Shown here one piece after another: positions 361 through 64,000 of a stretch of DNA of 64,000 nt. The stretch comes from an uncultured virus (IMG/VR IMGVR_UViG_3300031788_000008) (Duplodnaviria; Heunggongvirae; Uroviricota; Caudoviricetes), in IMG/VR virus record IMGVR_UViG_3300031788_000008, positions 1-64,000 of that record; one strand, 5' to 3'. The notes beneath the pieces were generated by a model, which was not told where the DNA came from, did no database searches, and worked only from the letters and a program-made list of their open reading frames with translations. The translations under genes and the position numbers were made by a program. Numbering within the stretch: the first letter of the stretch is position 1; every line of letters begins with the position of its first letter.

Positions 361-3300
361 ATGGCTATTCCAGTTCCATTTGATCCGAATAACGCAGTTA
401 CCGTTACAGGTACAGGTGCAACAGTAGAAACGCAGAATTCTACACTCCCGAATCAACTACCTATCTCCAATACATCACCTACAGGAGTTACGGGTACAGT
501 TCCATCCCAAACTCCGGCTACTACTATTAGAAATTTGTCCCAAAGTTGTCAAGAAAGAGAAATAATCAAGACCGCTCCCGATGTTATTGTGTATTTAGAG
601 GGAACCCCCTATTTGACAAATTACTTTATCGACGATCCAAAAACCAAAGCTAGTAGTACTTTAGTGAATTTTAATGACCATGTCACAGCATTCAACGCTT
701 CTTATGATACAGATATAATGGTACCCAACGCCACTATCGGTTTGCAGGTTCCAAATTTTTTAAGGTACTTGTATAAAATGCCTGGTGGTAACAATCTTTT
801 AGAAACTATGATGCAGGTACAAGTATATGCTAAAGGATATTACTTAGCATCAAACGGAGATACAGTATATCGCCGGGTTTTCAAGGGAATTACATCTCAC
901 ATAAGTTATAACGATAATGGAAAAACTCTGGAGATATCAATTCAATGTCAAGGGTCAATGCACTTACTTGAAAAGATGCAAATTAATGTTCACCCATCTG
1001 CAATGGCAGCGGCAACTTTAGGGAGTATGTTAACCTGGCAGCAAAGTATTTTTGGAGATAATAATTGTTTTACTATCTTAGCAAAAGCTTTCACAACAGG
1101 TTTTCAATCGGATGGATTTCAAGCTAGTTCAGTTAGGAGCACAGATGGAGGTTATTTAACTCCAAGTGATATGTTTTATTCCGCTGTTACTAGAGGTTAC
1201 ATGGCGAAATGGCAAGCCATTTTGATGAATATGATTAAAGATGTACATATTTATGGGCCAGACAAAGATACTTTAGGGCAATTAGATCAATTACAAGAAG
1301 ATGAAAATAAAGGGAAGATGGACAAAGATAAGAAGTATGCTAGTGTTACATCTCATCCCGTAAAAACTTTTACTGAAACGATTACTGATAACTCCCCTTA
1401 TTATAAAAAAATACAACAATTTTTACCTTTTAGAACTCCCGCTAGTTTACAGCTTACTGAGAGTGTTATTGTTAATAGATTGGATCTTATTCGTGAAGTA
1501 GTTAAGAAGATGGATTTTGAAGCATATCAAGATATTGATGGTAAGATTATTATCAAACCACCTTTGTACAATCTGGATGTCACAAACTTAGGTACTCGGT
1601 CTAAACAAACTAGTTCCAGCCCTCAAAATTTTGACAGTTTAGTTCAATCATCTATATCTACTGCACTTAGTGGAGGCTCGACGCCAACAACAACTACCTC
1701 TAGTAATTCAGTGTCTGCTAGTAGCATTAATCCACCATCTACTAGCAATAGTATGACGAATCCTCTGACTCAAATTTACCCGCAAAATAACCCTTTTGTG
1801 GTTTATTTATCAGAAATGTTAACAGAACAGGAAACAGAAGATCAAAGCGCCATTCGACGCACGCGCACCACTATAACAGGAAATATTATGCCGTGGCAGG
1901 GGAACAATTTTCCGGCACCCGCAAAGCCAGTAGCGGAGTATATTGATGTCACAAAACTAGCAAAGTTTGGTCTTAGGGAAGAACCCATGCAGCAAGTACC
2001 CTGGCTTACAATGGGAGACAAATATACTCTATTCGCTCACGCTGCCGCAGAAACAGCTAGGACAAATAGAGGGTACCGTACTTACTCGTTTACTATTCCC
2101 ATGCGCCCTGAATTGAAATTGGGATTCCCCGTATTTATACCCCACAAAGATATGTACGCATACATAAAATCTGTAGCTATAAATTATCAGGTTGGGGGGT
2201 CAGCTACAATGTCCATAGTATGTGATACAGTCCGACCTAGAGTTTTGGTTAAGACAGCTCAAACATCTACTACGGGCAATGTTAGTAATTCACCGGCCAC
2301 AAAATTTTCCGCTTATACCACAGCCCCTAATTTAATTTATATGTGGACAAATAATCCAGTCGCAGCTACGGTGTTTGATCCCGCGCAACCCCAAAGTTAC
2401 AATCAATATATTCAACAAACCGCTGGGGGTAATCAAAATACAAACACTAATATGACAAGTGAGCTAAATGTATCTCAATCTTTACCCGCTGTTACGAAAA
2501 ACATTGACGGAACAAAATTTGGTCCAACAGATCAACAAATAAAAGTGTATTCTTATCTATCCACTACCTTAGCAACAACCGTAGGTAATAAAGCCAGTAC
2601 TCCTACATCTACTTATGTTATCGTAAATGATACGGGGTATTTTAATGGAAGAGCAAAAGACCCAAATTATCCAGGCCGACCAGCGGATGGAGATTATGTA
2701 AAGGATATTTGTGGTAATCCAAATTCTGTTATTCCTTACACAGATGATAAAGGATATGAATTAATATCCCCATTTCCATGGGGGAGATGGAAAGATCTCA
2801 ACACAATCATCAGTGAAATAACCGAACAGGGGTGGATTAATATTCCTCAGACTAACGGGTTAAATGGGCAAGATTTACAAGATGAGACAACTTTTCAAAG
2901 TACGGAGGCTTTTTTGTTTGCTGGTTTAGGTACTCCAACGGCTACAAGTGACCCATCGACTATGTTATCCACGGCCATGGCTACCCAACAAAGTACAAAT
3001 ACTACACCTACATCGGTTTCACCAGCTTCAGCATCAGCTCCAAATTCACCGAATACCGGGGGAAATTCGACAAATACCATACAACCAGATGTTACTGTAA
3101 TAGTATTAGATTACAGTCAACCAGGTTCTAATAGTAATTTGTTAAATGCAGCTCAACCAGAAAACGCCTTGGCCGCTAGTTTAGTTAGCGCTAAAAACGC
3201 TGGATTGGCCGAACAGCAGCTAGTTAGCGTATTAGTATCTGGGACTGTAGCTCCAATCCCAGCGGTGCAAGAACAATTATTAATTGCTCAAAACAGTGCG

Positions 3301-3465
3301 GCTAATGCACAGCAGTCATTTGCTACACTGACCTTACCAGGGGGATCCGCAAATGCTGGGGGACTTACTACAACTAAGGTTACAGCTTCAACTAGTACTA
3401 TAGCTCAAACTTTGGGTCCAGCGCAAACTACAACGAGTAATTTACCAGTAGATATAACACCATAA
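361..3465 (+). CDS. baseplate hub-like protein (gp27/GpD-like)
   Basis: 1034 aa; motifs RLDLIREVVKKMDFEAYQDIDGKIIIKPP, KFGLR and FTIPMRPELKLGFPVFI resemble contractile-tail hub proteins; directly upstream of a spike-like gene. Confidence 0.6.
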   Translation: MAIPVPFDPNNAVTVTGTGATVETQNSTLPNQLPISNTSPTGVTGTVPSQTPATTIRNLSQSCQEREIIKTAPDVIVYLEGTPYLTNYFIDDPKTKASSTLVNFNDHVTAFNASYDTDIMVPNATIGLQVPNFLRYLYKMPGGNNLLETMMQVQVYAKGYYLASNGDTVYRRVFKGITSHISYNDNGKTLEISIQCQGSMHLLEKMQINVHPSAMAAATLGSMLTWQQSIFGDNNCFTILAKAFTTGFQSDGFQASSVRSTDGGYLTPSDMFYSAVTRGYMAKWQAILMNMIKDVHIYGPDKDTLGQLDQLQEDENKGKMDKDKKYASVTSHPVKTFTETITDNSPYYKKIQQFLPFRTPASLQLTESVIVNRLDLIREVVKKMDFEAYQDIDGKIIIKPPLYNLDVTNLGTRSKQTSSSPQNFDSLVQSSISTALSGGSTPTTTTSSNSVSASSINPPSTSNSMTNPLTQIYPQNNPFVVYLSEMLTEQETEDQSAIRRTRTTITGNIMPWQGNNFPAPAKPVAEYIDVTKLAKFGLREEPMQQVPWLTMGDKYTLFAHAAAETARTNRGYRTYSFTIPMRPELKLGFPVFIPHKDMYAYIKSVAINYQVGGSATMSIVCDTVRPRVLVKTAQTSTTGNVSNSPATKFSAYTTAPNLIYMWTNNPVAATVFDPAQPQSYNQYIQQTAGGNQNTNTNMTSELNVSQSLPAVTKNIDGTKFGPTDQQIKVYSYLSTTLATTVGNKASTPTSTYVIVNDTGYFNGRAKDPNYPGRPADGDYVKDICGNPNSVIPYTDDKGYELISPFPWGRWKDLNTIISEITEQGWINIPQTNGLNGQDLQDETTFQSTEAFLFAGLGTPTATSDPSTMLSTAMATQQSTNTTPTSVSPASASAPNSPNTGGNSTNTIQPDVTVIVLDYSQPGSNSNLLNAAQPENALAASLVSAKNAGLAEQQLVSVLVSGTVAPIPAVQEQLLIAQNSAANAQQSFATLTLPGGSANAGGLTTTKVTASTSTIAQTLGPAQTTTSNLPVDITP

Positions 3466-3466
3466 T

Positions 3467-5851
3467 ATGCCGCTACTAAGAAAAAATACGGATTTTTATC
3501 CACCTACATCATTTGAAAGAACAAATGAAAGCCTCCACCGCGATATTTTCATTGTAGAAGTTCTTACTGTTGACTATGAGCGTAAAGTAATGACAGTAGA
3601 AGATGTCAAAGATGGCCTTATTTATGGTAATGTTCAAGTATTTCCATCCGCGTCCACTTCATCACAAGGATACGATATGGTAATGCCCGAACAAGGTTCT
3701 ATGGGAATTGCTTGTAATTTTGCTTACGATAAAGGTTTTCGTCAGGTGATGATAATTAGCTGGATTCATATGGATAGGTATCTTGGGATAGATGCTGTTG
3801 GGGTTAGACAAATATCCGGCACCCGAATCCAAGGTTATAGCGACCGTCTGAGAGGTGTATATCGAAAGGCGTTCCCAGGGCAAAAAACATCAGCTTATAC
3901 AGGTGGGGCGTCAGAAAAGGTGGATACCGGCTGGGATAGACAAGCAGCCGATTATAGCAGAGATAAAACGGATGCGGATAAGCGTCAATGGACTCAGATA
4001 GCGGCCCGTAGGGTCTCCTATACCGATGCTGGGGTATCTTTTGAGGGGTCAGTGAATCGCCCTCTGGCATCAAATTTAATCCCTGTGATTCTCCCAGATG
4101 GGACAATGGAATATGTAGCCTACCTGCAACCCGGAGCCCAACCATCAGATCGATATGTTAGCGGGAAGCAGGATGTAATTCCTTTCGCTGAACACACAGA
4201 ATTGACGCAGGAATTCTCTCTTGATTATCCCATGCCTTATGAAGTATTACAGACCAGTTTGTTTAACACCGTATTAGGTTCTACCGCAGACCCATGGGCA
4301 CGCACTAAGGTAACCTCTCCCAGCGGTCAAGTAGCTTACGATAACGAAACTTACATGATTACCCAGACTTGGGATGATCCGTTTGATGATAGAGCAAAAG
4401 CCGTGGGTCCAACACTTAATGAAGGACCTACCCCGCAACGTAGAGCTTTTATTGTAGAAAAATCTCAAGGCACCTTGGTTGGATATAATATTTTTGACCA
4501 GGCAACTTACGGTCATGTGTTGAAGCCTGTTCTATTCCCTTATAATTACTGCGGGCGTTTTGGAGCAGATGTGGAATCAGGATATTTGCCAGTTGTGGAT
4601 TCCGCGGATCATGAAGAAGCTCGTTTAGCAGCATCTTGTCTAGCAATACGATTCCCTTATGACCAAAACACTACGCGATTGGATGTAACGAAAGAGGGTT
4701 TTATCAGCTTGGAAATCGGATCGACTTTACCTAAAGAAAATATTCTAAAGCATTGGCAAGGTGGATATGAACACCCCCACGGTGCTGGCCGTTCTTTAGA
4801 AGCGCACCTTGTAGGTAGTGCAAAAATTGTTATCGGTAAAAATAGAGATGAAGAAGATGCTTTGGACGCTCAAATTTTAGGGCAATCTGTAATTCGTCTA
4901 GGGGCGGATGATGCATCTCTTCCGAATTCTCGTCGCACAGTACAGACTCAAATTCGAAGTAATGGAGATATTCCGGCGACTCGTACTTTACAGTTCTGGA
5001 CCGAACACAAATTGAATCCAGGGGACGCCGGTAGCCTAACTATGAAAACGGGTGCTGAGAATATATCTCTTCGCGCTGCTACGGATGGAGGCGCTGTACT
5101 ACGCTTGGGGGCTAAGAATCCAGCATCTTTACGCCGTCATTTGATTAATGGGTACTCCGATGGTCCTGGTAAAACCGCTTATCCAGAATCTCCTACAGGA
5201 CCTTATGGCGGAGGTACTGATTGTGGGGAACCTTTCCATGGTCGCATAGACTCCAAGAGCCCGGGTCGTCCCACCTACGGAGCCGGGGATAATATTTATC
5301 GGTTCCATGATCTTACTCAAGTAGGAACACCCCCGCCAAATTCGGGGACAACTGACTTTAATCCTTTTCCCCCATACGCATGGAGTGGTTCTCCAGTAAT
5401 CAACATGGATGCTCATGGGCAATCTCTTGATTTGCATGCTGTGCGAGATGCTTTATTGCGTTTGGGTTCAAATCCAGATTCTGGGCAATCGTTGCTTTTA
5501 GACTTAGCCGGTGGAATAGTTGCAGCACTGGGAAAAGACAATCAGGGGCGTTCTATTACCGCGGCCTTAGACGGCGGGATTGAGATTACTATACTTCCTA
5601 ACGCACAAGGAAAAGCCATGCGATTAAATATTATTGGTGATGTTGACATCTCTCATAAAGGGCACCTTCAGTACAACTGTGGGGGAGATATAATTACAGA
5701 ATGTACAACAGCGAGAAGTATTGTAAAAACAGATCGTATTGAAACACAGATGAATGCGATTAGTGCTTCTCTTGTTAGCGATAAGAGAGAAGCTCCAAAT
5801 TCTGTGGATAATAATGGACTTTATGTCAGCAATGAAAATCAAATTTCTTGA
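3467..5851 (+). CDS. baseplate central spike-like protein (gp5/GpV OB-fold N-terminus)
   Basis: 794 aa; N-terminal VEVLTVDYERKVMTV...MPEQGSMGIAC OB-fold pattern; C-terminal beta-strand repeats (LNIIGDVDISHKGHLQYNCGGDI); follows the hub gene. Confidence 0.55.
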   Translation: MPLLRKNTDFYPPTSFERTNESLHRDIFIVEVLTVDYERKVMTVEDVKDGLIYGNVQVFPSASTSSQGYDMVMPEQGSMGIACNFAYDKGFRQVMIISWIHMDRYLGIDAVGVRQISGTRIQGYSDRLRGVYRKAFPGQKTSAYTGGASEKVDTGWDRQAADYSRDKTDADKRQWTQIAARRVSYTDAGVSFEGSVNRPLASNLIPVILPDGTMEYVAYLQPGAQPSDRYVSGKQDVIPFAEHTELTQEFSLDYPMPYEVLQTSLFNTVLGSTADPWARTKVTSPSGQVAYDNETYMITQTWDDPFDDRAKAVGPTLNEGPTPQRRAFIVEKSQGTLVGYNIFDQATYGHVLKPVLFPYNYCGRFGADVESGYLPVVDSADHEEARLAASCLAIRFPYDQNTTRLDVTKEGFISLEIGSTLPKENILKHWQGGYEHPHGAGRSLEAHLVGSAKIVIGKNRDEEDALDAQILGQSVIRLGADDASLPNSRRTVQTQIRSNGDIPATRTLQFWTEHKLNPGDAGSLTMKTGAENISLRAATDGGAVLRLGAKNPASLRRHLINGYSDGPGKTAYPESPTGPYGGGTDCGEPFHGRIDSKSPGRPTYGAGDNIYRFHDLTQVGTPPPNSGTTDFNPFPPYAWSGSPVINMDAHGQSLDLHAVRDALLRLGSNPDSGQSLLLDLAGGIVAALGKDNQGRSITAALDGGIEITILPNAQGKAMRLNIIGDVDISHKGHLQYNCGGDIITECTTARSIVKTDRIETQMNAISASLVSDKREAPNSVDNNGLYVSNENQIS

Positions 5852-53993: not shown

Positions 53994-54007
53994 AACCAGG
54001 AGGAAAT

Positions 54008-56179
54008 ATGAATCGTATTGTATCCGCACTTATCGTTTTTGTATTATTTGTAACCCCAGTTTTTGCTAGAAACCATCCATTGAAACGTCATGTCCGCAAA
54101 GAAGTTACATCGGCTGCTCGTGTAAGTGACCTTCCAGCAGATCGTCAATTGATTATGGCTATTATGTTGCCTCTCCGCAATGAGTCAACTTTAACAGCTC
54201 TTTTACAGCAAATAAACACCCCATCAAGTCCTTTGTATCACCAGTTTCTAACGCCTGAACAATTCACTAAAGAGTTTGGTCCAACGGAACAGGATTATCA
54301 AGCGGTAGTTCGTTTTGCTATAAAGCAGGGGTTTTTTGTGTACAAACAACACACTAATCGTATACTTGTTGATATCACTGGATCTACAGCACAAATAGAA
54401 AAAGCTTTCAATGTAAAAATGGGGTTATATAAACATCCTATTGAAAATCGTAATTTTTATTCTCCAGATGTAGAACCGTCTCTTGATTTAGATGTTCCAA
54501 TCTATCGTATTGCTGGTTTAAATAATTTCTCTATTCCTAGTCGTAGATTGATTAAGCGTTCATTTAACGCTCGTCTATCAGATGTAGTTGCAGGGTCTGG
54601 TCCTAGCGGTTCTTTCCGTCCATCGGATATGCGAGCGGCATATTATGGATCAGGTACTTTGACAGGTACCGGTCAATCTGTGGGCATGTTAGAGTTCGAT
54701 GGTTATAATATCGCAGATGTAAATTCTGATATGGGGGGTGTTGCTTATACCGTACCTGTACAGAATATTCTTGTCGATGGTGCAAGTGCTGGCTCTGATG
54801 GAGATGATGGAGAGCAAGCTTTGGATATCGCTCAAGCTATCGGTATGGCACCGGGGTTAACTTCTGTACGGGTTTACATCGCCCCAGGCAATTCCGCCAT
54901 AGGTACCGGAGATGTGGATATTTTTAATCAAATGGCTGTGGACAACATTTCCAAACAATTGAGTTGTTCTTGGGGTTGGAGTCCCGATGATATAACTGAT
55001 GATGACCCTATTTTTAAAGAATTCGCAGCACAGGGTCAAAATCTTTTTGTAGCCTCTGGAGATGCTGGTAAGTATACGGGAAATAACAATAATGATAGCA
55101 GCTACCCAGCTGAAGATCCGTATGTTGTAGCTGTTGGCGGTACGGATTTAACTACAAATGGTGCTGGAGGAACTTGGCAAACAGAAACGGCTTGGTCGGA
55201 TAGCAGTGGTGGTCCAGCGGACGATGGTTTTGCAATTCCTAGCTGGCAAGTAGGAGTAGCAAATTCTAATGGTGCTTCTACAGCAATTCGTAATGTTCCG
55301 GATGTTGCCGCAGAAGCAAATTTCGATAATATTATGTGTGATGATGGCGCTTGCACTTACAATCAAACTGGGGGTACTAGCTATGCTGCGCCTCGCTGGG
55401 CTGGCTATATGGCTTTAGTGAATCAGCAGAACATGACTAATCATGGTACTACTTTAGGTTTCTTGAATCCCTTGATTTATCCCATTGGTTTCGGTGCTGC
55501 GTACACTATTAATTTTCACGATATTACAAGCGGGAGCAATGGGCATCCGGCTACTGTTGGGTATGATATGGTAACTGGTTGGGGTAGTCCTAATGGGGCA
55601 ACTTTAATCAATACTTTAACAGGCGCTCCAACCGGAGTAGGATTACAAGCAACTTATAATCCAACCTATAAAACTCCAGCATGTACAGTTGTCAGTAATT
55701 CCTGTGATTCAGGCCCAACTCTACTTTTAGGTCGCGGAAATGTGCATAACGGTGCGGAACAAAATCACCCCAATACAATCAATAACTCTTGCGGGGATGG
55801 GAACTCGGGGGTATTTCACTCCTATGAATCAAATGATCGCCTTGCGGTAGCTTCTGTATCTGGTGGGTTGTTAACCGCGGGTACAAAAGCAACGATAACA
55901 GCCACAGTATGGGCTCGAAAGGATTTTGAAAGCGATTCTCTTGACCTTTACGTTACTTCAAATGTTGTAAATCCTACTTGGGTTTATATCGCTACGCTTA
56001 AGCCCACTAAAGATGCACAAAATATTTTATCGACTACATTTACTCTCCCAGCCTCCGGCAATTTACAAGCTGTACGAGCACATTTTCGATATGAGGGACA
56101 TGTGAATCCATCGGCTTGTGGTAATTCTTCTGGTGGAGAGTATGATGATTATGATGATTTAGTTTTTGCGGTGAATTAA
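54008..56179 (+). CDS. secreted S53 (sedolisin/kumamolisin) serine protease with pro-domain
   Basis: Signal peptide; pro-kumamolisin domain (SPLYHQFLTPEQF..FGP); catalytic EQALD, SCSWG, ASGDAG, RNVPDVAA, GGTSYAAP; Ca-site GYDMVTGWGSP; AGGAGG RBS. Confidence 0.92.
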   Translation: MNRIVSALIVFVLFVTPVFARNHPLKRHVRKEVTSAARVSDLPADRQLIMAIMLPLRNESTLTALLQQINTPSSPLYHQFLTPEQFTKEFGPTEQDYQAVVRFAIKQGFFVYKQHTNRILVDITGSTAQIEKAFNVKMGLYKHPIENRNFYSPDVEPSLDLDVPIYRIAGLNNFSIPSRRLIKRSFNARLSDVVAGSGPSGSFRPSDMRAAYYGSGTLTGTGQSVGMLEFDGYNIADVNSDMGGVAYTVPVQNILVDGASAGSDGDDGEQALDIAQAIGMAPGLTSVRVYIAPGNSAIGTGDVDIFNQMAVDNISKQLSCSWGWSPDDITDDDPIFKEFAAQGQNLFVASGDAGKYTGNNNNDSSYPAEDPYVVAVGGTDLTTNGAGGTWQTETAWSDSSGGPADDGFAIPSWQVGVANSNGASTAIRNVPDVAAEANFDNIMCDDGACTYNQTGGTSYAAPRWAGYMALVNQQNMTNHGTTLGFLNPLIYPIGFGAAYTINFHDITSGSNGHPATVGYDMVTGWGSPNGATLINTLTGAPTGVGLQATYNPTYKTPACTVVSNSCDSGPTLLLGRGNVHNGAEQNHPNTINNSCGDGNSGVFHSYESNDRLAVASVSGGLLTAGTKATITATVWARKDFESDSLDLYVTSNVVNPTWVYIATLKPTKDAQNILSTTFTLPASGNLQAVRAHFRYEGHVNPSACGNSSGGEYDDYDDLVFAVN

Positions 56180-56186
56180 CCAGAGC

Positions 56187-56262
56187 GCTCTTGTAGCTCA
56201 GTGTAGAGCATTCCGTGTGCAACGGAAGGGTCGGATGGTTCAACTCCATCCCAAGGGCTCCA
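56187..56262 (+). tRNA. atypical tRNA-like element (identity unclear; Cys/Ala-like pseudo-tRNA)
   Basis: Acceptor GCTCTTG/CAAGGGC plus T-CCA; D stem GCTC/GAGC; anticodon stem TTCCG/CGGAA with loop TGTGCAA; T loop TTCAACT on a 6-bp stem. Confidence 0.65.
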
Positions 56263-56267
56263 AATTT

Positions 56268-57233
56268 ATGAAGGAAATCTATGAACGAGTAGCGGCAGAT
56301 TTCGCAGAGAAAATTGACCATCTGTTTGAATCTGAAAAATCCCTAGAGACCACATTTAAACAGTATTACGAAGGTTTGCCCTTTGATCGTACAGAGCACT
56401 GGAGCGGTATCATCCACAAAATTTTATCTGATTCCTGGAAAGACAAAGGACCTGAAGTAAAGTGTGAACCTACAGGAATGGATAAACTTCAAATTATGCG
56501 TTATCTTCATCATCTTCTGGATTACAATATTTTTACTCAAGTACTTCTCAATCTCCAAGGATACACCGGTATGTTTTATATGACCGGAGATGCCCAAGCT
56601 GAGATTGAGCGAATGAAATCAGCATGGTCTTCAGCATACAAACTTGACCCCTTTGCTCCAAAGGCTAAAATGCTGAAACAGGCTGAAGCGATTACCGAAG
56701 AACAAAAACAATACAATCAAACTATCAGTGCTCTTCGTGCCCTGCGTATCATCACTCAGTTTACTCCACAAATTAGCTTCAGAGTGAGCCCAAAAGGGTC
56801 TACACCGGCCTTCGCAGACAGTCGTAATATCAGTATGATAGGGTTGGGGGGAGATCGCTTTCTTAAAACGATATCATCCCTCAAACCGTATTACATTACT
56901 TGGAATCAAGTTCCTCAAATAGCCCAATTTATCGGGATTACCACACCACCAGGGCACGATGTTCCTGTCTCTACATTTAAAGCAGACGGCATATCATATG
57001 AATTCCATTCAAAATCTGGTGGAGAAGTGATTCAAGATGTTCTTTTTGCTAGAAAAATCATGTATGAAATCTTCCGAGATGTTAATATAACCAGAGAGAC
57101 TTGTATCATGATTCCTCGTATGAATTCTATTTTGATTGTTGGGGATGTAGTATTTGAGAATCTACAAAAGGCATACGAGCGCCTGTACAAGATGTATCCG
57201 GTCATTAGTTTTGTGGATGGGATTCGTGCCTAA
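56268..57233 (+). CDS. hypothetical protein
   Basis: ORF 56217..57233; start moved to ATG 56268 because the upstream part overlaps the tRNA-like element. Confidence 0.7.
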   Translation: MKEIYERVAADFAEKIDHLFESEKSLETTFKQYYEGLPFDRTEHWSGIIHKILSDSWKDKGPEVKCEPTGMDKLQIMRYLHHLLDYNIFTQVLLNLQGYTGMFYMTGDAQAEIERMKSAWSSAYKLDPFAPKAKMLKQAEAITEEQKQYNQTISALRALRIITQFTPQISFRVSPKGSTPAFADSRNISMIGLGGDRFLKTISSLKPYYITWNQVPQIAQFIGITTPPGHDVPVSTFKADGISYEFHSKSGGEVIQDVLFARKIMYEIFRDVNITRETCIMIPRMNSILIVGDVVFENLQKAYERLYKMYPVISFVDGIRA

Positions 57234-57408
57234 AAAATGTAGAATTTATCTCTGTGAAAATCAAGCAACTAACTCTCTTCTGTTTAGTGATGATTCCATA
57301 TCATTTTATTGCGCAAAACATTATGATTCCATAACCAAGCGTTGGCTGAAACAGGCAGCGGAAGACTTAGATTGTTTAAAAGCGGTGAAAAGGAATAAGC
57401 TCAGATGA
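57226..57408 (+). CDS. small Zn-finger-like protein, paralog 1
   Basis: KKCxxxxCEN...FYCAKHYD motif shared with the next two ORFs; GTG start. Confidence 0.6.
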   Translation: MPKKCRIYLCENQATNSLLFSDDSISFYCAKHYDSITKRWLKQAAEDLDCLKAVKRNKLR

Positions 57409-57602
57409 AAAAATGTGATTATACTCGCTGTGAAAATTCAACTGTCGCACATATCGATTATTATAATAGTAATTTAAAATTTTACTGTGCGAAGCATTAT
57501 GATTTAATAGTTAAACATTTGGCCAAATATGCCCAAGACCCCGATGAATGGGGGATTCAAAGGTGGTTTACAGAAATTCTAAGAAGGAACGGGATCAGAT
57601 GA
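57405..57602 (+). CDS. small Zn-finger-like protein, paralog 2
   Basis: MKKCDYTRCENS...FYCAKHYD; ATGA overlaps at both ends. Confidence 0.7.
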   Translation: MKKCDYTRCENSTVAHIDYYNSNLKFYCAKHYDLIVKHLAKYAQDPDEWGIQRWFTEILRRNGIR

Positions 57603-57811
57603 AAAAATGTGACTATAATCGTTGTGAAAATTCAGCTGTCGCACATATCGATTACTGCGGGCAAACAGCTCAGCCAATCTGTGGGCCCGCAGTAAAGTTT
57701 TACTGTGCGAAGCATTATGATTTTATAGTTAAATATTTAGCTAAAGATGCCCTAGACCCCGATGATGATGGGTGGTCTACAAAAATTCTAAGAAGGAACG
57801 GGGTCAGATGA
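57599..57811 (+). CDS. small Zn-finger-like protein, paralog 3
   Basis: MKKCDYNRCENS...FYCAKHYD; near-duplicate of paralog 2 at DNA level. Confidence 0.7.
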   Translation: MKKCDYNRCENSAVAHIDYCGQTAQPICGPAVKFYCAKHYDFIVKYLAKDALDPDDDGWSTKILRRNGVR

Positions 57812-58791
57812 AAAAGATATTTCTGTTGGACACAATGAGTTTTATCTACCGCGCTTATCATGCTGCGGCACATCAGTCCATTATGATGAGTACTAAAGCA
57901 GGATTTCCTACCGGGGCGAGTTATATTTTTTGTAATATGCTTCGTAAATTACAAAAAGATTTTAATCCCGAGTACCTCATCGCCATATGCGACACCCCGG
58001 GCGAAACCTTTAGAGATAAACTATCCCCTGATTATAAGGCCAATCGCAAGGGCGAAACTCCTTACGACTTGGTACGCCAACTTCCTCACATTTTTAAGGC
58101 GATTGAAGCTTACGGCATCTCTAAAATGGAGTTGGCTGGATATGAAGCAGATGATATTATTGGTACCTTGGCGCGTAAAATTTACGCCGAAGATCCTGAA
58201 AATCAAGTATACATTGTGACCGGTGATAAGGATATGTTTCAGTTGGTAAACGACAGAACATTTACCATCAATCCTATGAAAGACTTGGTGTGTGATGTAG
58301 AAAAAGTGACTGAGATTGTGGGTGTGCCCCCAGAACAAGTTGTAGATGTCATGGCTTTACGTGGAGACACCACAGACAATGTGCCCGGAGCCCCGGGAAT
58401 CGGCAAGAAGGGGTCTGTAGACATCATCAAGCAGTTTGGTTCTTTAGAACAAGCTTTTGTACGAGCGGATGAATTGAAGCGTAAATCATATAAAGAGTCC
58501 TTAAAAAATAATCAAGCTCAAATCCTACTCAGCAAACAATTAGTGACCATAGAAATCAATGCTCCCGTAGAACTTAGTATTTCGTCTATGAAAATAGGGG
58601 AAACTAATACTGAAGCTCTGAGTTCTTTATACAAAGAACTAGAGTTCGCCACTCTTTTGAAAAGAGAAGGTTTAGGAGCGCTGCCTGAAATTGTAGATGA
58701 CTTCGCAGAAATCGTACCTCCTGATGACATTCTCACCCAAACCACGATGACCAAAGAAGATGCGGATGATTTGATCGACAGTATTTCATAG
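57808..58791 (+). CDS. 5'-3' exonuclease/flap endonuclease (stand-alone Pol I N-terminal domain)
   Basis: LLDTMSFIYRAYHA, YKANR, GYEADDIIGTLA, VTGDKDMFQLV, LRGDTTDNVPGAPGIGKK (H3TH). Confidence 0.92.
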   Translation: MKKIFLLDTMSFIYRAYHAAAHQSIMMSTKAGFPTGASYIFCNMLRKLQKDFNPEYLIAICDTPGETFRDKLSPDYKANRKGETPYDLVRQLPHIFKAIEAYGISKMELAGYEADDIIGTLARKIYAEDPENQVYIVTGDKDMFQLVNDRTFTINPMKDLVCDVEKVTEIVGVPPEQVVDVMALRGDTTDNVPGAPGIGKKGSVDIIKQFGSLEQAFVRADELKRKSYKESLKNNQAQILLSKQLVTIEINAPVELSISSMKIGETNTEALSSLYKELEFATLLKREGLGALPEIVDDFAEIVPPDDILTQTTMTKEDADDLIDSIS

Positions 58792-58793
58792 AT

Positions 58794-59126
58794 ATGGCTA
58801 AATATAATTGTAGCTGCGGTGAACCAGCGTTTGCTGTTATGTGCGGGGAAGAAGGTTTTCCTGTTTGTTTTGATCATTTTTTCAAACAGATAAAAGAAGA
58901 TGTTGAATATAATTTAAAACAGGCAGTTGGAAATACTGAAAGGTTTCAAATCCATTGTTTTTTCAAGAATGATGAACCTATTTATCTTCCTTTTGCGAGC
59001 TATCTTCAACTAGGAGAGAACCAACACTGCTGGGATAAATCTGATAACTGGAAAGATATTACTCCCTGTAAACATGAGAAATATGGGAACTATATAGTTA
59101 ATATAAGTCCCAGAAATTTCATATAG
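58794..59126 (+). CDS. hypothetical protein
   Basis: 110 aa with CxC...CxxH. Confidence 0.5.
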   Translation: MAKYNCSCGEPAFAVMCGEEGFPVCFDHFFKQIKEDVEYNLKQAVGNTERFQIHCFFKNDEPIYLPFASYLQLGENQHCWDKSDNWKDITPCKHEKYGNYIVNISPRNFI

Positions 59127-59463
59127 CAAAAGCATTCGAGAATGACCCGGTTTATAGCGATGATGACCAGCTTAAATATTGTGATTCCTGTGGAGTAAAT
59201 AAACTACAGGAAAGAAAAGCCCGCGGCAGAATTTTTAATACTGGAAAAAGAAATGATTGATGTTAACATATCGACCTATTAGCGGGTATTGATCAAAATT
59301 AGTTAGGGGTACAAAATCAATCCCGAAATTTTCAGACTTTCAAAATTATATTCATACAACCTTGAAATTTAACCTCACTGTGGTATTATAAATATATAGC
59401 AAACATTTATCGATGAAGCCACTTTATTGTGGTAAACCATAACAATTCAACCCCAGAGGAAAT

Positions 59464-60099
59464 ATGAATAAATCAATTGTTACCGTTCTTTCACTAGCAC
59501 TTTTTATGACTCCCCTTATTGCACAAGAAGAAAAAGGTGGACATGAATCGGCTAGACCCCAAGCAGCGCAACATGAAGGCGCAGCAAAACAAACAGCACC
59601 AAAACAAGAAAAAGTTCCAAAGGCTGAAAAAGTAGCCAAAGTTCCGAAGGCTGAGAAACAAGAAAAGGCCCCAAAGACAGAGAAAGTAGCTAAGACTCAG
59701 GCTCCAAAAGCTGAGAAGCAAGCAAGATCTGAAAAGCCTACAGCTGTAAAGGCCCAAAAGCAGGAAAAAGTAAAGGCTGAAAAACCAGAGACTCAAAAAG
59801 AGGATCGTACCAATGAGATAGCACATCAAAATTGGAACGGTAAGAATTTTAAGCCAGAATACTTTAAATCTAACTTTGGTGAATCGCACGGTTTTGGTAT
59901 TCGCAGTGCTCAATGGCAGGGAAATCAATTCCATTCAGGCTCACGCTTTATGTTCGGCGGTGCGTGGTTTGTACTAGGAGAGGATCTACCTCTAGATTGG
60001 TACAGCTGCAACACCTATATCAATGAATATGAAGGCGGATATGCTCTTTACTGCCCTGAATATCCAGGCGTTCCATTTGGAATCACTGTAGTATTCTAA
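59464..60099 (+). CDS. secreted protein with Lys/Glu/Ala repeats and an aromatic C-terminal domain
   Basis: Signal peptide; PKAEKVAK-type repeats; C-domain YFKSNFGESHGF...RFMFGGAWF...YINEYEGGYALYCPEYPGV; GAGGA RBS. Confidence 0.7.
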   Translation: MNKSIVTVLSLALFMTPLIAQEEKGGHESARPQAAQHEGAAKQTAPKQEKVPKAEKVAKVPKAEKQEKAPKTEKVAKTQAPKAEKQARSEKPTAVKAQKQEKVKAEKPETQKEDRTNEIAHQNWNGKNFKPEYFKSNFGESHGFGIRSAQWQGNQFHSGSRFMFGGAWFVLGEDLPLDWYSCNTYINEYEGGYALYCPEYPGVPFGITVVF

Positions 60100-60120
60100 T
60101 AACCGTTAACATTAACATCA

Positions 60121-60152
60121 ATATAGCCACTAATATAGTGGCTATATTTTTT
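60121..60152 (+). terminator. intrinsic terminator (3' arm duplicated)
   Basis: ATATAGCCACTA-ATA-TAGTGGCTATAT then TTTTT; the 18-bp unit GTGGCTATATTTTTTATC repeats at 60138 and 60156. Confidence 0.7.
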
Positions 60153-60354
60153 ATCGTGGCTATATTTTTTATCGTTACACTTGTTAAATTTTTATCGGAC
60201 TTTTCATTTCATAAGTAGATACGAGAAGAAAAATTATTTGAAATACTAGGATGAAATAATTGGTCTGCTGCGAAACTCGTAGCTTTCAAAACCCCACAAC
60301 TAACAAGGTTCGCCGTGGAAACTACAGTCAACCAACCAAAGACAAGGAGAATTT

Positions 60355-60960
60355 ATGAATTTCGATTATACCCCAAAAGCATCAGGACCAAAGAAAGCAA
60401 TTGGCCTATCTGTTACACAAACCATCAATAATGACGGCACAGCTTCAACAAACGCAATTTTTCAAGACAGCGATGGATTACCGATCACTGCCGCTCAGTT
60501 CAACAATTTATACCCAGTAGGTGTAGCGCTTCCAACGGTTACCGCTGGCGACAGTACACCAGGCCCTTCAGCATTTAAAGTTGTAGCAGTTACTCCTCCA
60601 ACTGCAAGCACTGCGGTCCCTGGGGCCTTTGTTGTAGCTACAACTTCCGCTGTTACACCACCTTCAGTTCCACCACCAACTGGCTGGGGACAAGCTGTGG
60701 ATTTTACTTGCTCAATCGCTAGTGGATTGGTAGGACAATCTACAACCCAATCTGTGGATGCCGGAACATTGAGTGTTGTCAGCAACTCCAACAATCCAGC
60801 AGCGTTCACCGTATCAACAAACAGCAGCGGTGTAGGGCTGGTGGCAGCGGGCGTGCCAGCTACTACGATTAAAAGTGCGTTTACTTCACCTGCTAAGCCT
60901 ACGATTACCCCTGGATATCAACATTCTCCAGATCCATCAACAGGCCGTAAGATTTATTAG
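60355..60960 (+). CDS. hypothetical Ig-like/Thr-Pro-rich protein
   Basis: 201 aa; AAGGAG RBS. Confidence 0.65.
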   Translation: MNFDYTPKASGPKKAIGLSVTQTINNDGTASTNAIFQDSDGLPITAAQFNNLYPVGVALPTVTAGDSTPGPSAFKVVAVTPPTASTAVPGAFVVATTSAVTPPSVPPPTGWGQAVDFTCSIASGLVGQSTTQSVDAGTLSVVSNSNNPAAFTVSTNSSGVGLVAAGVPATTIKSAFTSPAKPTITPGYQHSPDPSTGRKIY

Positions 60961-61016
60961 GCACAATTATTATGCCGGCCCAAAACACAGTCATGTAATA
61001 GAATTTGCACAACTAT

Positions 61017-61052
61017 AAAAGCCGTCAACTAAAAATTGACGGCTTTTGTTTT
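61017..61052 (+). terminator. intrinsic terminator (possibly bidirectional)
   Basis: AAAAGCCGTCAA-CTAAAAA-TTGACGGCTTTT then GTTTT. Confidence 0.85.
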
Positions 61053-61116
61053 GAAAAGAGATAAATGGAATAAATCAGTATTATATATTAAGTCCGGCCC
61101 GCCATAATCTGATTAC

Positions 61117-61428
61117 CAAAAAACGCCGTGAAGCCACGCCCTTCAGGCTGGGGATATAAGGCGGAAAGTGCTTGTATTAGATCGCAGGTTGTGGTATTTT
61201 TATTGTATGGCACTCGAAGGCTACAAAATAAGCATTGAAAGTCTTGCGAAAACCAAGCTGGCTAAATCAATGCTGCATTCGGGAATTATCGTCGCCTCGG
61301 GATACATGGAGTCGTTAAACGACTGCGGACAGTGTGTAAGTCTTGCGAAAGCAAGCAGCGCTGGTTGAAACAGTTAAGGGCGGCTTTGCCGCCTAGAATC
61401 CCTCGCCTTTAGGCGTGGGGAGTATCAA
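61117..61428 (+). mobile_element. miniature internally deleted IS200/IS605-family (tnpB-type) element
   Basis: Preceded by TTAC and ends in TCAA; left hairpin GAAGCCACGCCCTTCAGGCTGGGG; right end GAATCCCTCGCCTTTAGGCGTGGGGAGTATCAA; TnpB-like fragments MALEGYKI and LAKTKLAKSM; omegaRNA-like 3' region. Confidence 0.8.
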
Positions 61429-61449
61429 TAGATAGGGAGAGAAACAAAT

Positions 61450-61674
61450 ATGAATTTTCAAGAGCGTGTTATAACAGAAAAAAGAGAACTAGACAATAAA
61501 CTGGATAAATTGCAAGCCTTTATAAATGAAGGAACGGTTTATGCACAGCTTCCCAAAGAGGAACGTTCAAGATTAGCGAGACAGGCAACTGTCATGATTG
61601 AGTACTCTCAAATTCTCGCTGATCGTATCGCAAAATTTCAAGGGTATGATCCAACTAAAATTTGGTCTTTGTAA
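61450..61674 (+). CDS. small conserved phage coiled-coil protein (crAss001_48-like)
   Basis: FQERVITEKRELDNKLDKLQAFI...LARQATVMIEYSQILADRI pattern; GGGAG RBS. Confidence 0.65.
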   Translation: MNFQERVITEKRELDNKLDKLQAFINEGTVYAQLPKEERSRLARQATVMIEYSQILADRIAKFQGYDPTKIWSL

Positions 61675-61681
61675 ATAAATC

Positions 61682-61710
61682 TTGACAAATATTCCAACTA
61701 CCAGTATTAT
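61682..61710 (+). promoter_or_regulatory. sigma70-type promoter of the tRNA operon
   Basis: TTGACA (61682-61687), 17-nt spacer, TATTAT (61705-61710). Confidence 0.85.
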
Positions 61711-61725
61711 ACTCATAAGGCATTT

Positions 61726-61809
61726 ATGAACAACATTACCCTATCACCGTCATTGTCGTTGCTGGCTTATTACCTTAGCTTGCCACGCGGCGGTGTGTTC
61801 AACGGGTAA
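61726..61809 (+). CDS. attenuator leader peptide MNNITLSPSLSLLAYYLSLPRGGVFNG (27 aa)
   Basis: TAAGG RBS then ATG 61726; 12 of codons 6-19 are Leu, Ser or Tyr; stop TAA 61807-61809 lies inside the antiterminator hairpin. Confidence 0.8.
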   Translation: MNNITLSPSLSLLAYYLSLPRGGVFNG

Positions 61810-61864
61810 ATTTTAACCCGATTCGAATTAACCGCCGCCCCGAAATGGGCGGCTTTTGTTTTTT
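61745..61864 (+). promoter_or_regulatory. transcription attenuator (1:2, 2:3 antiterminator, 3:4 terminator)
   Basis: 1:2 CACCGTC(61745-51)/GGCGGTG(61789-95); 2:3 GCGGCGGT(61787-94)/ACCGCCGC(61831-38) with inner CGGGT/ACCCG; 3:4 GCCGCCC(61834-40)/GGGCGGC(61847-53) followed by TTTTGTTTTTT. Confidence 0.8.
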
Positions 61865-61869
61865 GTGGT

Positions 61870-61899
61870 AAGCCCAGACTTCTAGTCTGGGTAGATGAC
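61870..61899. repeat. isolated IS200/IS605-end-like (REP-like) hairpin
   Basis: AAGCCCAGACT-TCT-AGTCTGGGTAGATGAC resembles the AAGCCC...GGGTAGTTGAC terminal hairpins of this family. Confidence 0.5.
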
Positions 61900-61903
61900 C
61901 TTT

Positions 61904-61996
61904 GCCTAGAACGCAGATACGGTTGGCTGCATCCGGCTGTAACCCGGAATTTGGCTAGTCCAGACAATGGGAGTTCGAATCTCTCTCTAGGCACCA
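61904..61996 (+). tRNA. tRNA-Tyr(GTA)
   Basis: Acceptor GCCTAGA/TCTAGGC, A73, CCA; anticodon arm TCCGG-CTGTAAC-CCGGA; long variable arm; TTCGAAT T loop. Confidence 0.9.
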
Positions 61997-62009
61997 AAAT
62001 TTTATAGGG

Positions 62010-62291
62010 GTGATTATGGAAAAATTCATGTCCAGATCGGAACAGAAACGAGTAGCTTCAATGAAGGGAGAGCCCGCGCCTTCATTTGAGATTAGAGTTG
62101 AATACGATGATGGCGAATCGGTTTGGCATGATGGTAAAAGTCCTTTTTGTACACGCAGGGATCGCCCAATGGGAATGTACGCTATGATGCCGGATGACAC
62201 GCAGCGGCCTTTAAATATAGGGTACATGCGTGTGAGTGAAATGCAAGGATTGGAAAAACTCCTCAATGAAATTTTAAATTTTAAGAAATAG
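62010..62291 (+). CDS. hypothetical protein embedded in the tRNA array
   Basis: About 90-aa ORF exactly filling the Tyr-Leu spacer; GGGGTG RBS-like sequence before ATG 62016. Confidence 0.55.
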   Translation: MIMEKFMSRSEQKRVASMKGEPAPSFEIRVEYDDGESVWHDGKSPFCTRRDRPMGMYAMMPDDTQRPLNIGYMRVSEMQGLEKLLNEILNFKK

Positions 62292-62295
62292 TTTT

Positions 62296-62380
62296 GCGGC
62301 TGTGGTGGAATGGGCAGACACACCATCTTGAGGGGGTGGCGTCGAAAGATGTGAGAGTTCAAATCTCTCCAGCCGCACCA
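62296..62380 (+). tRNA. tRNA-Leu(GAG)
   Basis: Acceptor GCGGCTG/CAGCCGC, A73, CCA; CCATC-TTGAGGG-GGTGG; long variable arm. Confidence 0.93.
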
Positions 62381-62382
62381 AG

Positions 62383-62507
62383 TTTAGAGTCAAACCGTAG
62401 TTGTGAGGTTGCAACGGGGAGCTAACACAATGCTGCTCGATAAGAAGCGAAAGCTTCCGCTCGCGGGCGTAAGGTCGGGGTGCAGGCGTTGATCCGTTGC
62501 CTCTAAA
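62383..62507 (+). ncRNA. unidentified structured RNA between two tRNAs
   Basis: GC-rich spacer closed by TTTAGAG/CTCTAAA, with GCAACGG/CCGTTGC and GAAGC-GAAA-GCTTC helices. Confidence 0.5.
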
Positions 62508-62515
62508 ATAAGTTT

Positions 62516-62601
62516 GCCGGGTTGGTGGAATTGGGAGACACTCTGGACTTAGGATCCAGCGGTTAACAGCCATGCAGGTTCGACCCCTGTACTCGGCACC
62601 A
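62516..62601 (+). tRNA. tRNA-Leu(TAG)
   Basis: Acceptor GCCGGGT/ACTCGGC, A73, CCA; CTGGA-CTTAGGA-TCCAG. Confidence 0.93.
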
Positions 62602-62608
62602 AAAATTT

Positions 62609-62699
62609 GCGCGGGTGATGAAACTAGGGAGACATGCAGCGTTCAGACCGCTGTGCCCTTAAACAAGGCGTGCAGGTTCAATTCCTGTTCCGCGCACCA
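62609..62699 (+). tRNA. tRNA-Leu(CAG)
   Basis: Acceptor GCGCGGG/TCCGCGC, A73, CCA; CAGCG-TTCAGAC-CGCTG. Confidence 0.93.
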
Positions 62700-62712
62700 A
62701 TTTTGTAGATAG

Positions 62713-62803
62713 GCCAGAATGGCGGAATTAGGGAGACGCGCACGGCTCAAGCCCGTGTGAGCCTAAAAAACTCGTGGGGGTTCGATTCCCCCTTCTGGCA
62801 CCA
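62713..62803 (+). tRNA. tRNA-Leu(CAA)
   Basis: Acceptor GCCAGAA/TTCTGGC, A73, CCA; CACGG-CTCAAGC-CCGTG. Confidence 0.93.
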
Positions 62804-62992
62804 AAAATAAGTATTACATTTTATGGGCATATTTATTTGGCAGTGTATCAACTGTAAAAAGTTAGTAAAAACTTCCATGGATTTTTCTATCAATGATCGT
62901 CCAATATGTTTTGAATGATGATGAAGTAGCAGAATTTTTTGCTAGACTTTCAAAAATCAATTTTAAAAAACAATAACTATTTAAGTATCTTA

Positions 62993-63023
62993 AAATATCC
63001 ATTTTCAGTGTTTCCGATGTATA
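62993..63023 (+). promoter_or_regulatory. 31-bp promoter-like direct repeat (copy 2 of 3)
   Basis: AAATATCCATTTTCAGTGTTTCCGATGTATA, continuing as TATAAT; identical to 63240-63270. Confidence 0.75.
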
Positions 63024-63030
63024 ATTGGGT

Positions 63031-63240
63031 ATGGATATCACACTAAAAATTAAAAGGATCAGTGTCTTAACTGGTCACGGTACTGATAGGATTTACCTTT
63101 ATTTTGATCTGCCTACAACATTTCCTGACTGGCCGCTTGAGGAATGTTCCGCAGTCATCGAAGCGACTAAAGGTTACGGCGTTGCCTGGGTAAAAGAAAA
63201 TTTCCACCTAGAACCAGATGTAGTTTCGTCCTGTTTCTGA
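63031..63240 (+). CDS. hypothetical protein
   Basis: About 70-aa ORF between the two identical repeats. Confidence 0.55.
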   Translation: MDITLKIKRISVLTGHGTDRIYLYFDLPTTFPDWPLEECSAVIEATKGYGVAWVKENFHLEPDVVSSCF

Positions 63241-63270
63241 AATATCCATTTTCAGTGTTTCCGATGTATA
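63240..63270 (+). promoter_or_regulatory. 31-bp promoter-like direct repeat (copy 3 of 3)
   Basis: Identical to 62993-63023, continuing as TATACT. Confidence 0.75.
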
Positions 63271-63280
63271 CTAGGGATGT

Positions 63281-63556
63281 ATGAGTAAACCACCAATAAG
63301 CGAGAAACCTCCTTGGGTTCAAGGGGCTAAAAACACCAAGAAACGAAAGAAGAAAGACAACGATGCGATTCTAAATCCTGTATACGACGCAAAACTTGTG
63401 GAGAAATTGTGCGGAAACGCACGAAGGATAGTTCTTCAAGAAGGCAACGGGATGCTAACAAATGGTGTTCCAACGGAGTTATATTGGCACATCAATGGGT
63501 GCTCTGCTTGTGAAGAACTTCGCTCCAAGGCTAAACCACCAGAGATACCGTACTGA
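63281..63556 (+). CDS. hypothetical protein
   Basis: 91 aa, basic N-terminus, HxxxCxxC. Confidence 0.55.
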   Translation: MSKPPISEKPPWVQGAKNTKKRKKKDNDAILNPVYDAKLVEKLCGNARRIVLQEGNGMLTNGVPTELYWHINGCSACEELRSKAKPPEIPY

Positions 63557-63596
63557 GGTGTAACGCATCATGGCCGGGACTGTGATCAGGAGGAAT

Positions 63597-63884
63597 ATGA
63601 ACAAGCCGATTATTCTCATTGTAGCACTGAGATACGAAATTGATGGTGATTTAGAAGATGCGAAACGTATGTTGTCTAGAGCTTATGCTCCGCGTGAGGG
63701 AAGAGTTGAAAGTGCAAGTAGCCACAAAGCTACAGCAACATGCATATCAATGCAGGCTGAAATTGAGGAGATGCAAGAAGATATGTGTGAAGTTAGGAAT
63801 GGTGTTGGATATGCCTACCTACAGGTCCCTTACCCAGCGGGGGCAGCTGGCGTGCAGCAACAAAAGCAGAGGAAGAAGAAATAG
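63597..63884 (+). CDS. hypothetical protein
   Basis: AGGAGG RBS before ATG 63597 inside ORF 63570..63884. Confidence 0.45.
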   Translation: MNKPIILIVALRYEIDGDLEDAKRMLSRAYAPREGRVESASSHKATATCISMQAEIEEMQEDMCEVRNGVGYAYLQVPYPAGAAGVQQQKQRKKK

Positions 63885-64000
63885 ACAAAGAAAAGATCAT
63901 CAAAGCGATCAAAGAGATCGATGATGAATGTCGGAGGCGGTAATGAAAAGAGAACTCACTGAGAAGTTTTGCCAATTCGTCAACTACCCTGAAAGCGAGG

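Follow-up and report, generated by a model that had tools for sequence, protein, structure and literature searches.

Why should a phage place a short reading frame, rich in leucine (Leu), serine (Ser) and tyrosine (Tyr) codons, in front of an array of transfer RNA (tRNA) genes whose products all have long variable arms? The locus that raises this question, here termed unit A, occupies positions 61682-62803 of the window, that is, bases 1-64000 of the 75,792-bp virus record IMGVR_UViG_3300031788_000008. It consists of a promoter, a 27-codon leader open reading frame (ORF), a four-segment attenuator and five long-arm tRNAs. The first-pass annotation, made from the sequence alone, had proposed that the leader senses the shape of class II (long variable arm) tRNAs and had pointed to a nuclease recognizing that arm. 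We favor a different reading, to which we assign a probability of about 60%: a phage tRNA operon is placed under the control of a leader-peptide transcription attenuator and supplies tRNAs on demand, and the Leu/Tyr(/Ser) spelling of the leader reflects the set of isotypes in the unit. The record has a guanine plus cytosine content of 42% and carries baseplate, helicase, UvsX-like and exonuclease genes. Its completeness is 24% by CheckV, which implies a genome of roughly 300 kb.

All features of unit A are on the plus strand. Transcription is expected to begin at a sigma-70-type promoter (61682-61710; TTGACA and TATTAT separated by 17 nucleotides, nt), which has 11 of 12 matches and is the best of four sites in 60300-64000; the sister units described below start with promoters that are nearly identical to it. 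The leader ORF at 61726-61809 contains 27 codons followed by TAA (MNNITLSPSLSLLAYYLSLPRGGVFNG), and AAGG is located 6 nt ahead of its ATG. Codons 6-19 (61741-61782) read CTA TCA CCG TCA TTG TCG TTG CTG GCT TAT TAC CTT AGC TTG and encode L S P S L S L L A Y Y L S L, i.e. 12 of 14 residues are Leu, Ser or Tyr, the others being one proline (Pro) and one alanine (Ala). This control run had been recognized in the first-pass annotation, as had its Ser codons TCA, TCA, TCG and AGC, and both descriptions are correct; position 61741 marks the first Leu codon, with the ORF itself beginning at 61726. In a six-frame scan of the whole record, at least 12 Leu, Ser or Tyr codons were present in only 9 of 76,720 stop-free 14-codon windows, which derive from three loci including leader A.

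The leader RNA is predicted to adopt mutually exclusive pairings. Segment 1 (CACCGUC, 61745-61751) is located inside codons 7-9 (TCA CCG TCA) and pairs with segment 2 in untranslated RNA. Segment 2 (GCGGCGGUG, 61787-61795) is also the 5′ arm of an antiterminator, in which positions 61787-61794 pair with 61831-61838 to form the 2:3 helix. Segment 3 (61831-61840) is common to the 3′ arm of the antiterminator and the 5′ arm of the terminator with an overlap of 5 nt, and in silico the antiterminator occupies 5 of the 7 nt of the terminator 5′ arm. The intrinsic terminator (61834-61863), the first-listed of four terminator-like sites in the region, has seven G-C pairs and a 6-nt loop followed by TTTTGTTTTT, and its hairpin lies 40 nt before tRNA-Tyr. 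The calculated energies are -18.2 kcal/mol for the 1:2 hairpin (61745-61795), which is seen in the minimum-energy folds of the free RNA, -27.2 kcal/mol for the 2:3 antiterminator, and -14.5 kcal/mol for the 3:4 terminator hairpin (61834-61853).

The choice between these structures in the model depends on the position of the ribosome. When the leader RNA was folded under a ribosome-sized mask placed at successive codon positions, the free RNA formed the terminator, a ribosome with codons 4-6 or 8-14 in its A site favored the antiterminator, and a ribosome anywhere from codon 15 to the stop restored the terminator. The Tyr codons (15-16) fall just beyond this modelled antitermination window, the boundary of which depends on the assumed ribosome footprint. 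Contigs from four RNA libraries (61399-62093, 61399-62032, 61728-61969 and 61405-62156) cross the terminator into tRNA-Tyr, which is compatible with read-through at the contig level only, as carry-over of DNA is possible.

The regulated genes were called with ARAGORN and Rfam RF00005, and both methods identify all five: tRNA-Tyr(GTA) at 61904-61996 (93 nt), tRNA-Leu(GAG) at 62296-62380 (85 nt), tRNA-Leu(TAG) at 62516-62601 (86 nt), tRNA-Leu(CAG) at 62609-62699 (91 nt) and tRNA-Leu(CAA) at 62713-62803 (91 nt). Their RF00005 scores are 40.9-50.2 bits and CCA is encoded in each. With lengths of 85-93 nt they fall within the class II range (approximately 85 nt or more), in agreement with the first-pass annotation. 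Bacterial-type Leu and Tyr tRNAs have long variable arms, and the long arms of these five are explained by all of them being Leu or Tyr. The same annotation had noted that no tRNA-Ser is present here, and this extends to the entire 75,792-bp record, in which ARAGORN found 10 tRNA genes and Rfam 9 tRNA matches, none of them for Ser.

Unit A is not alone in its design. Related contigs were reached through a 250-nt repeat at 61178-61428 of the window, and more through the promoter pattern. Unit B is located on the same record at 70121 and carries Pro tRNAs with anticodons CGG, GGG and TGG behind the leader MTKMRPMPMFPPSPMGRGVAGL. Unit C, found on contigs G001 and G003, carries Val, Ala, Cys, Asp, Gly and Glu tRNAs behind MNKIHTNSNAVCTEHGTVAAAAAVGDTVSSDGWDG, and unit E, on G003, carries Trp, His, four Arg, two Asn, Gln, Lys and Phe tRNAs behind MTFRKSNTNVASKQGERQRKHNNRWFGAAGLFLVDSTDVV. 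Thus, the plan of promoter, leader and terminator also heads three arrays of short-arm (class I) tRNAs. Ribosome-mask folding of units B and C shows the same switch as in unit A, less cleanly in C. A further unit, D, is located on G003 (locus L012) and carries four Ser tRNAs (GCT, GGA, CGA and TGA) together with tRNA-Leu(TAA). The ends of a more distant contig, G002, contain no leader units.

A single genome containing a repeated element may underlie these contigs. Over 40 kb, G001 matches the window at 99.9% identity, and past the repeat it diverges into unit C; G003 (102 kb) shares unit C at 99.8% identity. RNA-library runs containing the window's repeat junction also contain junctions of the G001 and G003 types, indicating that the contigs co-occur. 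The repeat itself is non-coding and ends in a hairpin followed by GGGGAGTATCAA. It is present on five other IMG/VR contigs, twice on one of them, with copies at L001 17500-17753, L008 9775-10025 and L012 17794-18029 and in L006 and L011. As the contigs diverge completely directly past it, it marks a recombination or assembly junction. One copy on G003 is found just ahead of tRNA-Arg(TCT) and two tRNA-Lys(TTT) genes, and hairpin-plus-GGG(N)A motifs similar to the end of the repeat are located at 61133-61165 and at 61866-61900 of the window.

Comparison of each leader with each array supports a regulatory link. For all leader-array pairings, we counted the leader codons readable by the tRNAs of the array and compared this number with the frequency of such codons in phage genes. 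In leader A, 8 of 26 codons are readable by its own array, compared to 9.5% in phage genes (P=0.002). All five unit A tRNAs have a cognate codon in the control run, and the four distinct Leu codons of the leader (CTA, CTG, CTT and TTG) match the four Leu anticodons of the array. TTA, the commonest Leu codon in genes (29%), is absent from the leader, and tRNA-Leu(TAA) is absent from the array. Own-array matches are likewise enriched in leader B (5 of 21, P=0.0055; 9 of 21, P=7e-6 if Met is counted), leader C (19 of 34, P=0.005) and leader E (16 of 39, P=0.0007). All other pairings have P>=0.42, except for that of leader A with array D. Overall, a cognate codon is present in the leader of the same unit for 27 of 30 distinct anticodons.

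This correspondence makes it highly improbable that the short ORF is untranslated, that the hairpin serves as an ordinary terminator or a processing site, and that the codon match is a coincidence. RNA-library contigs that run over the terminator would also fit a weak terminator, but the match recurs in four independent leaders with only the own-array pairings being significant, the anticodons are almost completely represented, and the four-segment geometry is tied to ribosome position.

A plausible sequence of events for unit A can be proposed from these models. Host RNA polymerase would start at the 61682 promoter and a ribosome would translate the 27-codon leader. Stalling within codons 4-14, caused by scarcity of charged Leu (or Ser or Pro) tRNA, would allow segment 2 to pair with segment 3; this pairing would block the terminator, and the genes for tRNA-Tyr and the four tRNA-Leu would be transcribed. 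If the leader were read rapidly to its stop codon, or not translated at all, the terminator would form. Since the products would be the tRNAs that read the test codons, the loop would act as a demand-driven supply unit. The Leu/Tyr(/Ser) spelling would then be the isotype set of unit A, and the phage lineage has at least five units sorted by isotype in this manner. The alternative pairings and the codon-anticodon matches on which this proposal is built were observed in silico, and the translation of the leader, the stalling, the control of read-through and the physiological purpose are inferred.

Several observations weigh against an attenuator that simply matches supply to demand. The terminator of unit E persisted under every modelled ribosome state, and unit D has neither a start codon nor an antiterminator, which means that the units do not all follow one plan. 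Only identical copies of leader A were found (L017), so they carry no signal of covariation or of Ser-codon conservation. In addition, two findings go beyond simple codon matching: all 10 of the Leu, Ser and Tyr tRNAs among the 46 ARAGORN tRNAs collected reside in units A and D, where no class I tRNA is found, and leader A cross-matches the array of unit D (7 of 26 codons, P=0.026).

These last two findings also bear on whether tRNA shape is what is sensed. In such a scheme, class II tRNAs would share a vulnerability, for example to a host nuclease that recognizes the variable arm, and the leader would sense the loss of all three families and switch on replacements. The 12 of 14 control codons drawn from the three class II families, the strict sorting of their tRNAs and the cross-match to the Ser/Leu array all fit this scheme. 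The four Ser tRNAs and tRNA-Leu(TAA) of L012 and the unit A tRNAs are all at least 83 nt long, and the Tyr, Leu and Ser tRNAs show no sign of recent duplication, with best cross-family identities of approximately 60-63%. Two informative GenBank phages, Moby and DSS3P8, have Leu tRNAs mixed among class I tRNAs, indicating that phage arrays do not generally sort their tRNAs in this way. As for the other controls, no tRNA is annotated in the stretch of Aswh_1, the Leu tRNA of cr3_1 is isolated, and two fecal-phage scaffolds have single Leu tRNAs.

Cleavage of tRNA is a known antiviral defence. The mammalian Schlafen protein SLFN11 reportedly prefers type II, long-arm tRNAs; the likeness to the present case lies in tRNA cleavage as a defence, whereas the class II preference is mammalian and unlinked to this phage. 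A bacterial Schlafen defence acts by cutting the tRNA anticodon arm (PMC13056530). In the phage T5, tRNA-Tyr counters retron-Eco7 PtuAB and tRNA-Lys counters PrrC170 (PMC11555353). The T5 case resembles unit A in that a phage tRNA-Tyr from a tRNA-rich region with a strong promoter replaces a tRNA that a defence system can destroy; unlike in unit A, no leader gating of the counter-defence tRNAs is described there (PMC11555353).

The sister units argue against shared vulnerability of class II tRNAs. Class I arrays are placed under the same gating plan with matched leaders, the Ser genes are not controlled by leader A, and the enrichment of Ser codons in leader A is weak and partly structural. 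Furthermore, long variable stem-loops occur outside the class II units, on tRNAs of 87-89 nt with Pro(UGG), Asn(GUU) and Gln(CUG) anticodons inside class I units (L002 6665-6751, i.e. record 70665-70751; L012 14857-14943; and L012 15052-15140, respectively). The long-arm Asn tRNA has a twin of normal length nearby, and the Pro tRNAs keep C1-G72 and A73. Because the sister units gate short-arm tRNAs on the same plan, tRNA shape is probably not what leader A senses, and by the same token the presence of long-arm tRNAs behind a Leu/Ser/Tyr leader is by itself no evidence of a shape-reading host nuclease. We therefore consider the nuclease proposal of the first-pass annotation unsupported and unlikely to be correct, and its correction is the main value of the present analysis for that claim. 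Similarly improbable, in our judgment, is a version in which the phage purposely confines class II tRNAs to units with gates of their own, and in which the decoding of Leu, Tyr and also Ser codons is integrated by the Leu/Tyr leader. Such an arrangement would imply a shared fate of these tRNAs, e.g. a defence nuclease or a maturation step reading the variable arm, and tRNA shape would be exploited in a related way by the long-arm Pro, Asn and Gln tRNAs.

If the attenuator follows its own isotype set, the four Ser codons of leader A call for a separate explanation. The first-pass annotation had predicted from them that genes for tRNA-Ser(TGA/CGA/GCT) would exist elsewhere, and unit D of the linked contig G003 indeed contains all three, under its own promoter and not behind leader A. 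Unit D is present as identical copies on two metagenome contigs. As far as a sharp breakpoint, its promoter and 5′ untranslated region differ from those of unit E by only one substitution and two short indels. Past this breakpoint, a start-less in-frame run, AGT TCA ACT AGT AGC TCC, directly follows a TAA (L012 2654-2882) and is followed by a plain terminator. The run is identical in three assemblies and is thus not an assembly error. We considered it as a Ser leader for unit D and rejected it, as an in-frame TAA stands ahead of it and it has neither a start codon nor an alternative pairing; frameshifting and read-through of the run were also considered and dropped as unsupported.

One explanation treats the Ser codons as a relic or cross-link. 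In this history, a single Leu/Ser/Tyr operon behind leader A would once have comprised both A and D, with D later acquiring a copy of the promoter of another unit. Unit A carries four of the five Leu isoacceptors and unit D the fifth, tRNA-Leu(TAA) is most similar to the unit A tRNA-Leu(CAA) (73%), the D promoter region is near-identical to that of E only up to the breakpoint that precedes the start-less Ser run and terminator, and the D tRNAs can read all four Ser codons of leader A. We nevertheless regard this history as doubtful: A and D are adjacent on no contig, unit A is followed in the record by unrelated genes with a different promoter-like motif, and no diverged relative showing the ancestral order was found.

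Alternatively, the Ser codons may have no sensing role and reflect chance and RNA structure, a possibility that we hold only tentatively and rate below even odds. Ser accounts for 7.6% of gene codons, and 4 Ser among the 26 leader codons gives P=0.13. The TCA CCG TCA stretch produces the segment-1 strand CACCGUC, the partner of GGCGGUG in segment 2, which offers a structural explanation for the Pro codon and two of the Ser codons; minus those two Ser codons, 2 Ser in 24 codons equals the background. Codons without a match in the array occur in other leaders too (Thr, Ser, Asn and His in C; Arg and Phe in B). On the other hand, P is 0.018 for 4 Ser in the 14-codon control run and 0.046 for 3 of 11 in the modelled antitermination window. 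Leader B has four internal Met codons (P=0.0003) even though the Met tRNAs are 2-4 kb downstream. Structural and sensing roles are also compatible, since in classical attenuators the regulatory codons lie in segment 1 as well. The Ser codons of leader A are most likely partly structural, and they may in part connect the leader to the Ser/Leu(UAA) unit D or be left over from it. What remains puzzling for the attenuator reading is the strict Leu/Ser/Tyr sorting together with Ser codons in a leader that has no Ser tRNA genes under its control.

Multivalent leader-peptide attenuators are known from the enterobacterial amino-acid operons trp, his, leu, thr, ilv and pheA. Unit A resembles them in its promoter-proximal short ORF rich in regulatory codons, its exclusive 1:2, 2:3 and 3:4 pairings, the intrinsic terminator before the regulated genes, and the use of several amino acids per leader. 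In contrast to those operons, the genes regulated in unit A are five phage tRNA genes and not biosynthetic or aminoacyl-tRNA synthetase genes; the feedback would therefore close on tRNA supply itself, which places unit A outside the described leader families. Leader A has no match to an Rfam leader family. T-box elements share with unit A the reading of tRNA charging and a terminator/antiterminator choice on translation-related genes. They differ in binding tRNA directly and in having no leader ORF, and no T-box riboswitch was matched by Rfam at E<=1 in 54000-64000. Our literature searches turned up no published description of tRNA genes controlled by a leader peptide. If the attenuator reading is correct, the phage would meter its own tRNA output by the speed of a ribosome over matching test codons, turning trp-operon logic onto the decoding machinery itself, and the element would be a natural sensor of tRNA depletion in infection as well as a compact part for synthetic biology.

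Among GenBank phages, megablast identified no close relative, and blastn returned only single-tRNA matches covering 4-9% of the query. Protein-anchored searches gave no relatives for the 74-residue protein encoded upstream and no GenBank phage match for a 201-residue protein; the exonuclease has only distant GenBank phage matches (<60% identity). The exact 5′ half of tRNA-Leu(CAA) had 0 matches in viral contigs, a back-translated pattern of the control run also had 0 matches, and no diverged copy of leader A was found in similarity and pattern searches.

Two further elements are located within the unit A array. An ORF of 91 codons (62016-62291) separates tRNA-Tyr from tRNA-Leu(GAG); its product has no Pfam family and no relative in the viral contigs. 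A structured 135-nt spacer (62381-62515; minimum-energy fold of -40.9 kcal/mol) that is not a tRNA follows tRNA-Leu(GAG). It was considered as a decayed tRNA-Ser and rejected: Rfam matched no tRNA in it at E<=1, ARAGORN gave no hit even when its threshold was relaxed, and no repeat was found. Some RNA-library contigs have no cover over parts of 62392-63174; one joins 62886 to 63240 and another skips 62094-62769. Downstream of the array, two copies of a 30-nt motif (AAATATCCATTTTCAGTGTTTCCGATGTATA; 62993-63025 and 63240-63272) precede small ORFs and probably represent a phage-specific promoter. Elsewhere in the window, a lone tRNA-Ala(TGC) at 56187-56262 begins 8 nt past the stop codon of a 723-residue gene whose product has pro-kumamolisin activation and subtilase domains.

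Other elements were noted outside the window. Inside the Val/Ala/Cys/Asp/Gly/Glu array of unit C is a class A bacterial RNase P RNA (L001 21718-22101; 169 bits, E=8e-53). A permuted transfer-messenger RNA (74 bits) is found behind the same promoter and 5′ region at L015 3501-4018, and also in L019, L023, L029 and L030; it is followed by a match to the CyVA-1 RNA (43.3 bits, cut-off 41.4). A release-factor gene with PCRF and RF-1 domains (L002 7296-7956, record approximately 71296-71956) is split into two frames at CTT TGA, which is preceded by GGAGGGG, an arrangement that we take to resemble the programmed +1 frameshift site of bacterial prfB. Beyond it, a TnpB-like gene (OrfB_IS605, Cas12f1-like TNB) adjoins tRNA-Met (L002 9087-10226 and flanks, record approximately 72900-74250); copies of GGAAAGTATAGGGA flank this tRNA-Met and recur past the gene. 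A third consensus promoter (L002 10595-10848, record 74595-74848) is followed by a structured RNA of approximately 215 nt, with no codon-matched ORF and no Rfam match at E<=0.05, and then by tRNA-Met(CAT). On G003, a tRNA-like gene at L012 15441-15511 (Rfam, 44.5 bits) has a six-base anticodon loop, ATTAAC, and could not be named by ARAGORN. Finally, an array on the reverse strand of L003 contains a small zinc-ribbon-like ORF and, behind it, the 3′ half of an Ala-type tRNA (approximately 3300-3500 in the reversed locus); several homing-endonuclease-like ORFs also interrupt this array.

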